64,000 nucleotides of DNA from Escherichia coli (GTDB taxonomy: Bacteria; Pseudomonadota; Gammaproteobacteria; Enterobacterales; Enterobacteriaceae). The stretch is taken from NCBI RefSeq assembly GCF_041248615.1, contig NZ_CP158426.1. One strand, 5' to 3'. Positions 1,658 through 17,893 of the stretch are shown here, piece after piece. Under the pieces are notes generated by a model. It was not told where the DNA came from. It ran no database searches and saw nothing but the letters and a program-made list of their open reading frames with translations. How positions within the stretch are numbered: the stretch's first letter is position 1; every line of letters begins with the position of its first letter. The position numbers and the translations under genes are program-made.

Positions 1658-2065
<408 letters not shown>

Positions 2066-2080
2066 TCTGAAGCAACGTAA

Positions 2081-2108
2081 AAAAACCCGCCCCGGCGGGT
2101 TTTTTTAT
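2081..2108 (+). terminator. rho-independent terminator of alpha operon
   Basis: GC hairpin aaaaacccgccccggcgggttttttt followed by T-run directly after rplQ stop. Confidence 0.85.
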
Positions 2109-2171
2109 ACCCGTAGTATCCCCACTTATCTACAATAGCTGTACTCTTTTTGTTCATCCCCTGGAGTATTT

Positions 2172-2540
2172 ATGTGGTTACTTGACCAGTGGGCAGAGCG
2201 TCATATTACTGAGGCACAATCCAAAGGTGAGTTTGATAATCTTCCGGGAAGTGGCGAGCCATTGATTCTGGATGATGATTCACACGTGCCACCAGAATTA
2301 CGTGCGGGGTATCGCTTGCTGAAGAATGCTGGTTGCTTACCGCCAGAACTTGAGCAGCGGAGGGAAGCAATTCAGCTTCTGGATATCCTCAAAGGTATCC
2401 GTCACGATGATCCGCAATATCAAGAGGTTAGTCGTCGATTGTCATTACTGGAATTGAAGCTGCGACAAGCTGGATTGAGTACCGATTTTTTACGCGGCGA
2501 TTATGCTGACAAGTTGTTGAACAAAATCAACGATAACTAG
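2172..2540 (+). CDS. yhdN: DUF1992 family protein YhdN
   Basis: 122 aa ORF in conserved position between rplQ and zntR. Confidence 0.85.
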   Translation: MWLLDQWAERHITEAQSKGEFDNLPGSGEPLILDDDSHVPPELRAGYRLLKNAGCLPPELEQRREAIQLLDILKGIRHDDPQYQEVSRRLSLLELKLRQAGLSTDFLRGDYADKLLNKINDN

Positions 2541-2550
2541 TGGAGTATGT

Positions 2551-2976
2551 ATGTATCGCATTGGTGAGCTGGCAAAAATGGCGGATGTAACACCCGACAC
2601 GATTCGTTATTACGAAAAGCAGCAGATGATGGAGCATGAAGTACGCACCGAAGGTGGGTTTCGCCTGTATACCGAAAGCGATCTCCAGCGATTGAAATTT
2701 ATCCGCCATGCCAGACAACTTGGTTTCAGTCTGGAGTCGATCCGCGAGTTGCTGTCGATCCGTATCGATCCTGAACACCATACCTGTCAGGAGTCAAAAG
2801 GCATTGTGCAGGAAAGATTGCAGGAAGTCGAAGCACGGATAGCCGAGTTGCAGAGTATGCAGCGTTCCCTCCAACGCCTTAACGATGCCTGTTGTGGGAC
2901 CGCCCATAGCAGTGTTTATTGCTCGATTCTTGAAGCTCTTGAACAAGGGGCGAGTGGCGTTAAGAGTGGCTGTTGA
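2551..2976 (+). CDS. zntR: MerR-family Zn(II)-responsive transcriptional regulator
   Basis: 141 aa, N-terminal MerR HTH (MYRIGELAKMADVTPDTIRYYEKQ), C-terminal Cys residues; synteny. Confidence 0.92.
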   Translation: MYRIGELAKMADVTPDTIRYYEKQQMMEHEVRTEGGFRLYTESDLQRLKFIRHARQLGFSLESIRELLSIRIDPEHHTCQESKGIVQERLQEVEARIAELQSMQRSLQRLNDACCGTAHSSVYCSILEALEQGASGVKSGC

Positions 2977-3031
2977 TTTTTTACACTGGCAGGATTACAC
3001 TCGCGCCGTTAAATAACCAACTGGAGTTTTT

Positions 3032-3250
3032 ATGAGCCGATATCAGCATACTAAAGGGCAGATAAAGGATAATGCGATAGAAGCATTACTACATGATCCC
3101 TTATTCCGACAGCGCGTAGAGAAAAATAAGAAGGGGAAAGGCAGTTACATGCGAAAAGGAAAACATGGCAATCGGGGGAACTGGGAGGCCAGTGGCAAGA
3201 AAGTAAATCACTTTTTTACCACTGGCCTTCTGCTTTCAGGCGCTTGTTAA
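3032..3250 (+). CDS. arfA: alternative ribosome-rescue factor A
   Basis: 72 aa [42 protein letters not shown]... recognised as ArfA (YhdL); 3' end overlaps mscL stop convergently. Confidence 0.88.
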
Positions 3251-3657
3251 GAGCGGTTATTCTGCTCTTTCAGCAAATCACGAATTTCTGTCAGTAATAC
3301 TTCTTCTTTAGTTGGTGCAGGCGCGGCTGCTGGTTCTTCTTTTTTCCGATTCAGTTTGTTGATTAGCTTAATCGCCATAAAGATGGCAAAGGCTACAATC
3401 AGAAAATCAAAGACGTTTTGAATGAAGACACCGTAATGCATCACAACAGCAGGGATATCCCCCTGCGCATCGCGTAGCGTGACAGCAAACTGTTTGAAAT
3501 CGATCCCGCCAATTAATAACCCCAGAGGTGGCATAATGATATCGGCAACCAGTGAAGATACAATCTTCCCGAATGCCGCACCGATAATGACACCCACCGC
3601 CAAATCCACCACGTTCCCGCGCATCGCAAATTCGCGAAATTCTTTAATAATGCTCAT
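3247..3657 (-). CDS. mscL: large-conductance mechanosensitive channel
   Basis: 136 aa, [46 protein letters not shown]... recognised as MscL. Confidence 0.96.
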
Positions 3658-3786
3658 GTTATTCTCCCTATGAAGCCGACAATCATAAGTCTAACAAATG
3701 TTAAGCTATTTTCCTGCCAGGAGTGAATTTAATTAATCCCTGATAATCAAAGGGAAATAATAAGGCGTCATTAGACGCCTTATTAA

Positions 3787-5163
3787 TTACAAGAAGAAAG
3801 GACTTGGCTGGAAGAGTCTTTCGACGTCGGTAATAAACTTTTTATCTGTGAGGAACATAATTACGTGATCGCCTTGCTCAATGCGCAGATTGTCATTGGC
3901 AATCATCACGTCGTTTCCACGTACCACCGCTCCAATAATCGTTCCTGGCGGTAGCTTGATTTCATCAATGACTCTGCCGACAACGCGTGAGGTACTTTCA
4001 TCACCGTGAGCAACGGCTTCAATAGCTTCTGCTACGCCGCGGCGCAATGAGGAAACACCAACAATATCTGCTTTTCGCACATGGCTAAGCAACGCGGAAA
4101 TCGTTGCTTGTTGCGGTGAAATCGCAATATCGATCACGCTCCCCTGAACCAGATCCACATAAGCGCGACGCTGGATCAATACCATCACCTTTTTCGCACC
4201 CATACGTTTGGCGAGCATGGCTGACATGATATTGGCCTCGTCATCGTTGGTGACGGCAATAAACAGATCAACTTGATCGATATGTTCTTCGGCCAGCAGT
4301 TCTTGATCCGACGCATCACCAAAAAAGACGATCGTATTCTGCAACTTTTCCGCCAGTTCGGCAGCGCGCTGCTGATTACGTTCGATGAGTTTGACGCTGT
4401 AATCTTTTTCCAGACGACGCGCCAGCCCTGCACCGATATTACCACCACCAACCAGCATGATCCGCTTATACGGTTTTTCCAGTCGCTGTAATTCACTCAT
4501 CACCGCGCGGATATGCTGTGAAGCGGCAATAAAGAACACTTCATCACCCGCTTCAACAATGGTCGAACCTTGCGGACGAATGGGGCGATCATGGCGGAAA
4601 ATTGCTGCCACACGAGTATCGATATGTGGCATATGCTCGCGCATGGTCGAAAGTGCATTACCAATCAGCGGGCCGCCATAATAGGCTTTAACCACAGCCA
4701 GGCTGACTTTACCCTCAGCGAAGTTCACCACCTGCAATGCGCCGGGATATTCAATCAGTCGGTAAATATTATCGATAACCAACTGCTCTGGTGCGATCAG
4801 ATGATCAATCGGTACAGCATCTGAATGAAATAGCTTATCGGCATCGCGCACGTAGTCTGGTGAGCGGATACGAGCGATGCGATTAGGGGTGTTGAAAAGT
4901 GAGTAGGCTACCTGGCAGGCAACCATATTGGTTTCATCTGAACTGGTTACAGCAACCAGCATATCGGCGTCGTCGGCACCTGCCTCCCGCAATACGCGTG
5001 GATGAGAGCCATGCCCCTGCACGACTCGCAGGTCAAATTTATCCTGCAAGGTCCGCAGACGCTCACCGTTGGTATCGACAACAGTAATATCGTTGTTCTC
5101 GCCAACCAGGTTTTCCGCCAGTGTGCCGCCAACCTGGCCGGCACCCAGAATGATAATTTTCAT
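3787..5163 (-). CDS. trkA: Trk potassium uptake system NAD-binding protein
   Basis: 458 aa, two Rossmann GxGxxG motifs ([21 protein letters not shown]); synteny. Confidence 0.96.
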
Positions 5164-5184: not shown

Positions 5185-6474
5185 TCACTTTTTGATTAGC
5201 TTAGCGTAAAAGAAGCCGTCGCCCTCTTCGGCACCAGGCAGATTTTGTTTACCCGGTTGCTCTGGTGTTCCTGTTTCGCAAAGTTCGGCATCAGCGGTAC
5301 GTTGCAAAAAGGCTTTAATCTGCAGGCTATTCTCTTCCGGTAACACCGAACAGGTGGCATAGACCAGGGTTCCACCGGATTTTAAATGCGGCCAAATGGC
5401 GTCGAGAATTTCAGACTGCAATTGCGCGAGTTCTGGGATATCGCGATCGCGACGTAACCATTTAATATCCGGATGGCGACGAATCACACCGGTTGCTGAA
5501 CAAGGCGCATCTAATAAAATGCGATCAAACTGTTGCTCGCCACACCATTGGGAAGGGTAACGGCCATCACCTTGTTTCACGGTTGCCTTCATACCAAGGC
5601 GTTTTAAATTGTCGTAAACGCGAGAGAGGCGCTGTTCGTCAATATCAACCGCAACAACCTGCGCTTCTGGTGCCACCTCAAGGATATGCGTTGTTTTACC
5701 GCCGGGGGCGGCACAAAGATCCAGGATGTGTTCACCGTTTTGTGGCGCAAGCCAGGTCATGCAACCTTGTGCTGATGCATCCTGAACGGTAACCCATCCG
5801 TCTTCAAAACCAGGTAGCGCATGAACAGGTGCAGGTGTTTCCAGACGTACAGCATCAGGGTAATCCGCATGCGGGAAACCTTTCATTCCTGCTTCATCCA
5901 GCAATGCAAGCCAGCTGTCGCGGGAATGATGCGTACGATTAACGCGCAGCCACATTGGCGGACGCTGGTTATTGGCTTCGACGATGGATTGCCACTGCTC
6001 TGGATACGCTTTTTGCAGACGCTTCAGCAACCAGGAAGGATGCAGATAACGTGCATCACTGGCATTAAACTCGGCTAATAACTCTTCTTGCTGACGCTGG
6101 AACTGGCGTAATACACCGTTTATCAACCCTTTAAGTTGCGGGCGCTTAATTGCGATAGCGCCTTCAACCGTTTCAGCCAGCGCAGCATGAGGTGGTATGC
6201 GGGTATAAAGCAGTTGATACAAACCAACCATAATCAGGTAATGCACAGTGCGCTGTTTGCCGGTCATCGGACGGGCCATTAACTTATTAATCAGCCAGTC
6301 TAACTGTGAAAGCGTACGCAGTACGCCAAAGCACAACTCTTGAAGAAGTGCTTTGTCTTTATCGGAAACTTTTTGCTGGAGCGGTGGCAGAATGTTGCTT
6401 AATGATTGCCCTTGCTCGACGACTTGTTCAACGGCCTGTGCCGCCATGCTACGTAAATTACGTTGTTTTTTCAT
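5185..6474 (-). CDS. rsmB: 16S rRNA m5C967 methyltransferase
   Basis: ORF 5185..6495; start set at the Met giving 429 aa ([13 protein letters not shown]...); NusB-like N-term plus SAM MTase motifs ([11 protein letters not shown]). Confidence 0.93.
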
Positions 6475-6519
6475 AAGTATAAAAATGCCCGGCAAGACCG
6501 GGCTTAGAAGAGTGGACTA

Positions 6520-7467
6520 TCAGACCAGACGGTTGCCCGGAACAAACCATTCCCGACGAGAATTCAGGAGGTCTTGCGCGCTCATCGCTTTCTTACCCGC
6601 AGGTTGTAACGAGAGCAGGTTCAGGATGCCATCACCAGTCGCAACCTGAATGCCTTGTTTATTGGCTTCAAGGATCGTTCCTGGTGCAGCGTTGGTTGCC
6701 GTATCAATGACCGACGCTTTCCAGACTTTAACCGGCTGTCCTTCAATTTCCAGCCAGCTCATTGGCCATGGATTGAAAGCGCGAATGCAGCGTTCAAGCT
6801 GCGCTGCCGAAAGCGACCAGTCAATACGCGCTTCTTCTTTACTCAACTTTTCGGCGTAAGTGACAAGAGTTTCGTCCTGAACTTCTGGTTTCGCCGTGCC
6901 GTCTGCCAGTTGTTTCAATGTGGTGATAAGCCCTTGTGGGCCAAGCTCTGCCAGCTTGTCGTACAGCATACCACTGGTATCTTCTGTAGTAATCGGGCAG
7001 GAGAGCTTATAGAGCATGTCACCGGTGTCTAAACCAACATCCATTTGCATAATGGTCACACCAGTTTCTGCATCACCCGCCCATAGTGAGCGTTGGATTG
7101 GTGCAGCACCGCGCCAGCGTGGCAACAGTGAACCATGAACGTTGATACAGCCAAGACGCGGCATCTCCAGCACAGCTTTCGGCAGAATTAAACCATAGGC
7201 GACGACGACCATAACATCAGCCTGCAGATCGGCGACCAGTTGCTGGTTTTCTTGTGGACGCAGGGAAACAGGTTGAAAAACGGGCAGACCTTTTTCCTCA
7301 GCCAGAACTTTAACCGGGCTGGGCATCAGTTTTTTACCGCGTCCTGCCGGTCGGTCTGGCTGGGTGAACACGCCAACGACGTTATGACCAGAAGACAACA
7401 GCGCGTCGAGATGACGCGCTGCAAAGTCAGGTGTACCCGCAAAAATAATACGTAGTGATTCTGACAC
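6520..7467 (-). CDS. fmt: methionyl-tRNA formyltransferase
   Basis: 315 aa, [24 protein letters not shown]...; def-fmt operon arrangement. Confidence 0.96.
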
Positions 7468-12917: not shown

Positions 12918-14459
<1,542 letters not shown>

Positions 14460-14527
14460 CCTTAAAGAAGCGTACTTTGCAGTGCTCACACAGATTGTCT
14501 GATGAAAATGAGCAGTAAAACCTCTAC

Positions 14528-14604
<77 letters not shown>

Positions 14605-14646
14605 AATTTGCACCGCAAATTTGAAGAGGTTTTAACTACATGTTAT

Positions 14647-14722
14647 GGGGCTATAGCTCAGCTGGGAGAGCGCCTGCTTTGCACGCAGGAGGTCTGCGGT
14701 TCGATCCCGCATAGCTCCACCA
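14647..14722 (+). tRNA. alaU: tRNA-Ala (TGC)
   Basis: GGGGCTATAGCTCAGCTGGGAGAGC...CTTTGCACG...GCTCCACCA in spacer. Confidence 0.95.
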
Positions 14723-14896
14723 TCTCTGTAGTGATTAAATAAAAAATACTTCAGAGTGTACCTGCAAAGGTTCACTGCGAAGTTTTGCTCTTTAAAAATC
14801 TGGATCAAGCTGAAAATTGAAACACTGAACAACGAAAGTTGTTCGTGAGTCTCTCAAATTTTCGCAACTCTGAAGTGAAACATCTTCGGGTTGTGA

Positions 14897-17801
<2,905 letters not shown>

Positions 17802-17893
17802 ACAACGCCGAAGATGTTTTGGCGGATGAGAGAAGATTTTCAGCCTGATACAGATTAAATCAGAACGCAGAAGCGGTCTGATAAAACAGAATT

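Follow-up and report, generated by a model that had tools for sequence, protein, structure and literature searches.

ArfA is known for the RF2-dependent rescue of non-stop ribosomes (PMC8012679, PMC3989591). In Escherichia coli, the protein is itself made from a non-stop mRNA that has been truncated by RNase III (PMC8012679, PMC3989591, PMC8327144, PMC10070815). According to reviews, the stop codon and about 18 codons are removed by the nuclease (PMC3989591, PMC8327144), and ArfA truncated to 53-55 residues retains full function (PMC3989591). The stem-loop was defined by Garza-Sanchez 2011 and Chadani 2011, and its coordinates, nt 146-206 of arfA, are given in Morra et al. 2023 (PMC10070815). 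According to the same source, RNase III frees a 54-nt 3' fragment, which a further cut divides into nt 166-189 and a piece from nt 190 to the stop. The arfA-derived small RNA is antisense to the 3' UTR of mscL. By lowering the stability of the mscL mRNA, it modulates the MscL-dependent excretion of proteins, and in vitro the mscL 3' UTR is itself cleaved by RNase III (PMC10070815). An RNA-seq survey counts mscL-arfA among the E. coli excludons, that is, transcriptional overlaps (PMC12288877).

RNase III is perhaps not the sole route to the non-stop mRNA, since the stem-loop may act in either of two ways, by ending transcription prematurely or as a target of RNase III (review, PMC8012679). The closest described system of the former type is the terminator-type arfA hairpin of Neisseria gonorrhoeae (Schaub et al. 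2012). In the summary of that work given in PMC8327144, the hairpin lies upstream of or across the stop codon and the product is a non-stop mRNA, as in E. coli.

The DNA analysed here, a stretch of 64,000 nucleotides (the window, whose numbering is used below), is part of an E. coli chromosome. The 801-bp stretch around arfA occurs in 5425 of 5426 complete E. coli genomes, in several of them with 100% identity and annotated as zntR - arfA - mscL. The RefSeq annotation of strain KE55 gives the gene order rpoA-rplQ-yhdN-zntR-arfA><mscL-trkA-rsmB. The nominal arfA ORF occupies positions 3032-3250 of the + strand, with an ATG start and 72 codons plus TAA, and ends in LLLSGAC, both in the ORF list and in RefSeq. 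The mscL coding sequence runs on the - strand at 3247-3657 (136 codons plus TAA; ORF list, Pfam and NCBIfam). The identities of the two genes are secure. ArfA matches Pfam PF03889 over residues 4-45 with 89.5 bits (cut-off 25.5, E = 9.2e-26), and MscL matches its Pfam family at 2.4e-47 and the NCBIfam MscL equivalog at 1.6e-85. An NCBIfam search returned no model matching ArfA. The ArfA protein of the window is identical in 72/72 residues to the ArfA chains of PDB entries 5H5U, 5U9F and 5U9G, and the role in RF2-dependent rescue described in the literature refers to the identical protein.

Among the closest described systems is arfA of E. coli K-12 (yhdL, b4550), with a stem-loop in its 3' coding sequence that RNase III processes (Garza-Sanchez et al. 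2011; Chadani et al. 2011; Schaub et al. 2012). Compared with it, the 72-aa protein is identical, and the DNA agrees in 217/219 nt, with both differences synonymous. One of them, C in the window for T at 3226, turns a G·U pair of the stem described below into G-C and so strengthens it. The zntR-arfA-mscL-trkA synteny and the hairpin coordinates (nt 146-206) match those of K-12 as well. Upstream of the gene, a candidate sigma-70 promoter may be read at 2973-3001 (+), with a -35 element TTGATT (2973-2978), a 17-nt spacer and a -10 element TACACT (2996-3001). It agrees with the consensus at 8/12 positions, under the 9/12 threshold of the promoter scan, and hence is absent from the scan output, which lists no arfA promoter. 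The candidate overlaps the zntR stop codon (2974-2976), and its assignment to arfA is suggested by reading of the sequence. A Shine-Dalgarno motif, GGAG, can be read at 3023-3026 (+), 5 nt upstream of the arfA ATG.

Folding of positions 3150-3260, where the original prediction had expected the RNase III hairpin, gave a stable structure (-42 kcal/mol, z = -4.2). It is dominated by a hairpin at 3177-3237 (+), in the 3' part of the arfA coding sequence. Taken alone, this hairpin folds at -32.6 kcal/mol (z = -6.2), and 0/200 shuffled sequences fold as well, so that the stable 3' structure on which the prediction depended is present. The 26 predicted pairs of the hairpin form stacked segments of 4+14+8, interrupted by single bases at 3181/3233 and at 3196/3218, and the loop (3205-3209) has 5 nt. 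The helix of an RNase III substrate has to extend over roughly two turns, or at least about 20 bp, and this length is reached by the 26 predicted pairs as well as by the 21 pairs of the consensus described below. Comparison with the characterised arfA site, also proposed by the prediction, had the same outcome: the hairpin spans arfA nt 146-206 and coincides exactly with the stem-loop coordinates in PMC10070815, where it is the RNase III substrate.

The RNase III cuts can be mapped from the same source, at 3196/3197 in the 5' arm (arfA nt 165/166) and at 3220/3221 in the 3' arm (nt 189/190), both on the + strand. These positions are second-hand: they rest on Morra et al. 2023, where Garza-Sanchez 2011 and Chadani 2011 are cited, and on the K-12 annotation. 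In that annotation, the 54-nt ncRNA yrdG (b4846), with the RefSeq product name 'arfA-derived small regulatory RNA', corresponds to 3197-3250 (+) of the window with 53/54 nt identity, and its 5' end fits a cut after nt 165. If so placed, the 5'-arm cut would fall exactly at the end of codon 55, which would be the 3' end of the non-stop mRNA. The 3'-arm cut would split the 54-nt fragment into pieces of 24 + 30 nt; in the predicted fold, it lies 1 nt off the position for an ideal 2-nt 3' overhang opposite the first cut. Codons 1-55 (3032-3196, +), which would be retained on the truncated mRNA according to the cut in PMC10070815, encode functional ArfA. Ribosome structures in the PDB were obtained with ArfA constructs of residues 1-55 or 1-60.

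In the proposed mechanism, the arfA transcript would fold in its own 3' coding region into the hairpin at 3177-3237, about 25 bp in length, and RNase III, according to the literature, would cut both arms at the positions mapped above. The 5' product would be an mRNA that ends at codon 55 without a stop codon. As described in the literature, ribosomes would run to the end of the truncated message and stall there. With tmRNA-SmpB available, the nascent ArfA would be tagged and degraded. With trans-translation saturated or absent, untagged ArfA(1-55) would accumulate and recruit RF2, and stalled ribosomes would be rescued. With the message ending at codon 55, decoding of the remaining 17 codons and of the TAA should be rare, if it occurs at all. 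Since the opposite strand of the hairpin DNA encodes the mscL 3' UTR, the released yrdG would be perfectly antisense to it and would lower the stability of the mscL mRNA. What the original prediction says about the synthesis of ArfA from a non-stop mRNA truncated by RNase III agrees with all four literature sources cited for it at the outset. We are highly confident that the locus is E. coli arfA together with the known device by which it limits its own expression, including the cuts, the tmRNA control and the mscL antisense effect known from the literature, and none of the results obtained speaks against this. The gene identities, overlap, hairpin, covariation, strand bias, independence of mscL and drift of the stop codon were computed here, and the RNase III cuts, tmRNA control and antisense effect on mscL were taken from published work.

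Homologues of arfA were collected in one DNA-pattern scan of species-representative genomes, using a back-translated 16-residue ArfA stretch (residues 24-39). The scan gave 120 loci from about 40 genera, belonging to the Enterobacterales and Pasteurellaceae, plus one Shewanella. A strong hairpin that starts near codon 51 is present in all homologues among the matches listed, with stem sequences that vary by clade. An RNAalifold analysis of the 113 distinct arfA homologue sequences defined a core of 21 pairs (3182-3232, +), of which 16 show compensatory changes. In this helix, 97.8% of the cells are paired, with up to six pair types per position. The covariation score was 0.478 versus 0.198 for shuffled alignments, and 0/500 shuffles reached the observed values, although these shuffle statistics are inflated by the pattern selection (residues 24-39) and by the phylogenetic relatedness of the homologues. 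In slid controls, with the partners moved by 1-3 columns, 39-61% of the cells were paired. In view of these controls and of the many pair types, an artefact behind the covariation signal is unlikely. The analysis provides an independent covariation test of the arfA hairpin across about 40 genera.

It is conceivable that the non-stop arfA mRNA of E. coli arises mainly by intrinsic termination, with RNase III in a secondary role. Reviews state that the stem-loop is able to terminate transcription prematurely (PMC8012679) and that the hairpin acts as a terminator in N. gonorrhoeae (PMC8327144), and the Pasteurellaceae homologues have a perfect stem with a 3' arm that ends in GGGUUUUUC. In the window, however, the tail after the helix on the + strand, CUUUCAGG, has 3 U in its first 8 nt and is a poor U-tract. 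The promoter and terminator scan did not report the main hairpin as a terminator on either strand; near the overlap, it found only one weak 5-bp stem, at 3241-3255, and the 4 sites that it counted in all are compatible with chance (1.7 ± 1.5). Termination after the hairpin, at about 3240, would moreover leave the hairpin in the mRNA, and both PMC10070815 and the K-12 annotation describe discrete RNase III products from nt 166. In contrast to the N. gonorrhoeae type, the E. coli hairpin is not followed by a U-tract and is reportedly cut by RNase III rather than terminating (PMC8327144). For E. coli, intrinsic termination as the main route therefore appears unlikely.

In some relatives, the arfA stop codon lies within the hairpin. 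In Rouxiella and Serratia sp. M24T3 (four loci) and in Chimaeribacter (three loci), it is located 21-22 nt before the 3' base of the hairpin, so that a non-stop mRNA could arise only through cleavage of the 5' arm, not through termination beyond the stem. In Xenorhabdus budapestensis DSM 16342 (positions 3392-3556 of locus L031), the arfA ORF has 54 aa, and an extra G immediately before the hairpin causes a frameshift that brings a stop codon into the 5' arm. If this is genuine, the strain would translate ArfA from an mRNA with a stop codon, and the protein could evade control by tmRNA. The extra G could equally be a homopolymer sequencing error.

The hairpin could also be regarded as primarily an element of mscL, a terminator that forms or stabilises the 3' end of the mscL mRNA, with the arfA ORF merely reading through it. 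The 3' UTR of mscL, +1 to +64 after the stop according to the Fig. 2 legend of Morra 2023 (PMC10070815), corresponds to 3183-3246 on the - strand and forms the complementary hairpin; its reported end lies about 5 nt beyond the hairpin. The minus-strand fold is stable (-28.1 kcal/mol, z = -5.5). In most Enterobacteriaceae, the hairpin is located 13-16 nt beyond the mscL stop and there is no separate terminator, and in Serratia, Rouxiella and Pantoea an extra GC hairpin with A and T runs lies between arfA and mscL. However, the minus strand continues after the hairpin without a U-run (UCCCAGUU), so that the U-tract of an intrinsic terminator is found on neither strand, and the terminator scan was silent.

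The comparative data also speak against a primary role for mscL. Read on the opposite (mscL) strand, 82.2% of the cells of the 21 pairs would pair, versus 97.8% on the arfA strand, because G·U predominates in the basal pairs, and in one upper pair, when the arfA strand is read. The full 21-pair helix is thus formed on the arfA strand only, and the minus-strand hairpin of the window is shorter and weaker. Furthermore, the hairpin is kept at the same arfA codon in Xenorhabdus, Pasteurellaceae, Budvicia, Pragia and Shewanella, where a tblastn search of the fetched locus found no convergent mscL. The strand bias and the presence of the hairpin without nearby mscL together show that selection acts mainly on the arfA-sense RNA, and that the adjacency of mscL is secondary. 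A role of the hairpin at the mscL 3' end is plausible as an added or secondary function, but not as the primary one, which we consider very unlikely.

The separate intergenic hairpins were seen in six loci of the Serratia and Pantoea type. They are GC-rich with A-run and T-run flanks, for example AAAAAAGCCATCTTAATAAGATGGCTTTT, and look like bidirectional terminators. One of the six (L116) is labelled Enterobacter ludwigii EnVs2, but it has the Pantoea-type arfA, hairpin and tail that L045 and L113 also show, rather than those of Enterobacter, which suggests that the assembly is mislabelled or mixed. The Enterobacteriaceae lack a separate intergenic hairpin, and their arfA hairpin is found 13-16 nt from the mscL stop (4 nt in Salmonella). 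A coupling of the hairpin with terminating ribosomes through a fixed 13-16-nt spacing to the mscL stop was considered and ruled out, as the distance is 4 nt in Salmonella and 1-4 nt in Providencia and Proteus.

With respect to the antisense pair, the window has the same convergent geometry as described for the yrdG/mscL crosstalk (PMC10070815) and for the excludon (PMC12288877), with the mscL 3' UTR lying under the 3' coding sequence of arfA. There is no difference of substance between the window and the published yrdG/mscL system. We also considered whether RNase III in fact acts on a duplex between the arfA and mscL RNAs instead of the intramolecular hairpin. This possibility is not favoured, since the G·U pairs are specific for the arfA strand and the hairpin is kept without nearby mscL.

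The two coding sequences overlap by the palindrome TTAA (3247-3250), which contains the arfA TAA at 3248-3250 (+) and the mscL TAA at 3249-3247 (-); the length of 4 bp counts both stop codons. The original prediction described the 72 aa arfA ORF as ending 4 bp inside the 3' end of the convergent mscL gene, and the sequence, the ORF list and RefSeq agree on this. The identical 4-nt overlap is annotated by RefSeq in KE55 and in K-12 MG1655 (mscL 3438024-3438434, arfA 3438431-3438649). Morra et al. 2023 (PMC10070815) class the E. coli arfA-mscL pair as 'proximal' and not as 'overlap', despite the 4-nt overlap in RefSeq, which probably reflects how the distances were computed.

Among relatives, the position of the arfA stop is variable. 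Where a convergent mscL is present (83 loci), the arfA and mscL stops lie between -118 nt (overlap) and +125 nt (gap) apart. The mode is 0 in Enterobacter, Klebsiella, Raoultella and Kluyvera, -4 in Escherichia and Citrobacter, and -65 in Salmonella and Trabulsiella, with further modes at -47 and -26. The nominal arfA ORF of the homologues has 48 to 137 aa. Relative to the 3' base of the helix, its stop ranges between 36 nt upstream and 220 nt downstream; in Rouxiella, Chimaeribacter and one Xenorhabdus, it falls within the hairpin. The spacers between hairpin and mscL stop are 13, 14, 15 or 16 nt long, so that the frame of the tail differs between close genera. Such a drift of frame and stop is expected if the arfA tail is untranslated.

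The eye-catching 4-bp overlap is most likely an incidental consequence of the untranslated ORF tail, marking where the first in-frame stop falls after the hairpin in Escherichia. What is conserved and selected is the hairpin rather than the overlap of the coding sequences. That the TTAA overlap is itself selected, for example through interference of ribosomes or polymerases that terminate on both strands, is highly improbable and was rejected: the -4 arrangement does recur in Escherichia and Citrobacter species, but the stop position drifts among the relatives over the whole range given above, the reading frame of the tail is not kept between close genera, and the arfA stop should rarely be reached by ribosomes because the mRNA is cut at codon 55. 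The earlier suggestion that the 3' portion of the ORF serves as regulatory RNA structure no less than as coding sequence is borne out by the covariation of the hairpin and by the lack of conservation in stop position and frame.

A second, smaller hairpin was noticed in the mscL stop region. It has 8 bp and spans 3249-3269 (+), with the DNA sequence AAGAGCGG-TTATT-CTGCTCTT and the RNA sequence AAGAGCGG-UUAUU-CUGCUCUU. The element consists of the mscL stop codon and the seven codons before it (KEQNNRS), with third-codon positions that pair with each other, and its stability is -10.5 kcal/mol on the arfA strand versus -6.5 kcal/mol on the mscL strand. In 22 distinct Enterobacteriaceae sequences with KEQNNRS, the pair between the Arg and Glu wobble positions is G-C in 4, A-U in 15, G·U in 2 and A·C in 1. 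Across the same 22 sequences, the stem is 93.8% paired on the + strand and 75.6% paired when read on the - strand, against about 52-60% for slid controls, which is weak statistical support. The mini-hairpin is confined to Enterobacteriaceae with the KEQNNRS C-terminus and is not conserved outside this group. It may be speculated that it represents a second, undescribed arfA-sense RNA element, which, together with the loss of the intergenic terminator, would make a compacted two-hairpin arfA/mscL module in the Enterobacteriaceae. This interpretation is doubtful at present; if true, the mini-hairpin would define or protect the 3' end of the uncut arfA RNA or of yrdG.

The arrangement had been called known but unusual at the outset, and this is accurate, as it has been studied in Morra et al. 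2023 (PMC10070815) and yrdG is annotated in K-12. The gene, the hairpin, the RNase III/tmRNA circuit, the mscL overlap and the antisense sRNA have all been published and are annotated in K-12, and are thus already known. All computable defining features of E. coli arfA with its RNase III hairpin and of the yrdG/mscL antisense pair were found in the window, and the biochemical features of the arfA/yrdG system have been published for an essentially identical sequence (PMC10070815, PMC3989591, PMC8327144). The present analysis places the known arfA/mscL features precisely on the window. For 3032-3270, Rfam gave no match, whether at E <= 1 or with the gathering threshold, and scans of 2000-5000 (E <= 1) and of the whole window (gathering threshold) gave nothing on arfA or mscL. 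A well-characterised cis-element that is described in papers is therefore without an Rfam model.

Some of the collected loci deserve comment in their own right. In Xenorhabdus miraniensis DSM 17902, arfA appears to be present twice, on two contigs that each encode an identical 66-aa protein. A 383-bp contig assigned to Arthrobacter sp. 18067 (NZ_CACSJJ010000125.1) carries a Raoultella-like arfA together with the 3'-terminal part of mscL, and is almost certainly an enterobacterial contamination. The 104-kb E. coli plasmid pEC81-2 (NZ_CP088132.1; positions 5893-6522 of locus L122) harbours a second, foreign convergent arfA-mscL pair, with 76.5% identity to the chromosomal region and a CDS overlap of 27 bp. 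This pair is boxed in by fragments of Tn3, IS110, IS3 and IS26, so that the two genes have moved together as one unit. Elsewhere in the window, positions 12918-18256 (+) contain a complete rRNA operon with the ordinary layout of E. coli rrnD, in the order 16S, two tRNAs, a StyR-44 match in the spacer before the 23S, 23S, 5S, one tRNA and a second 5S.
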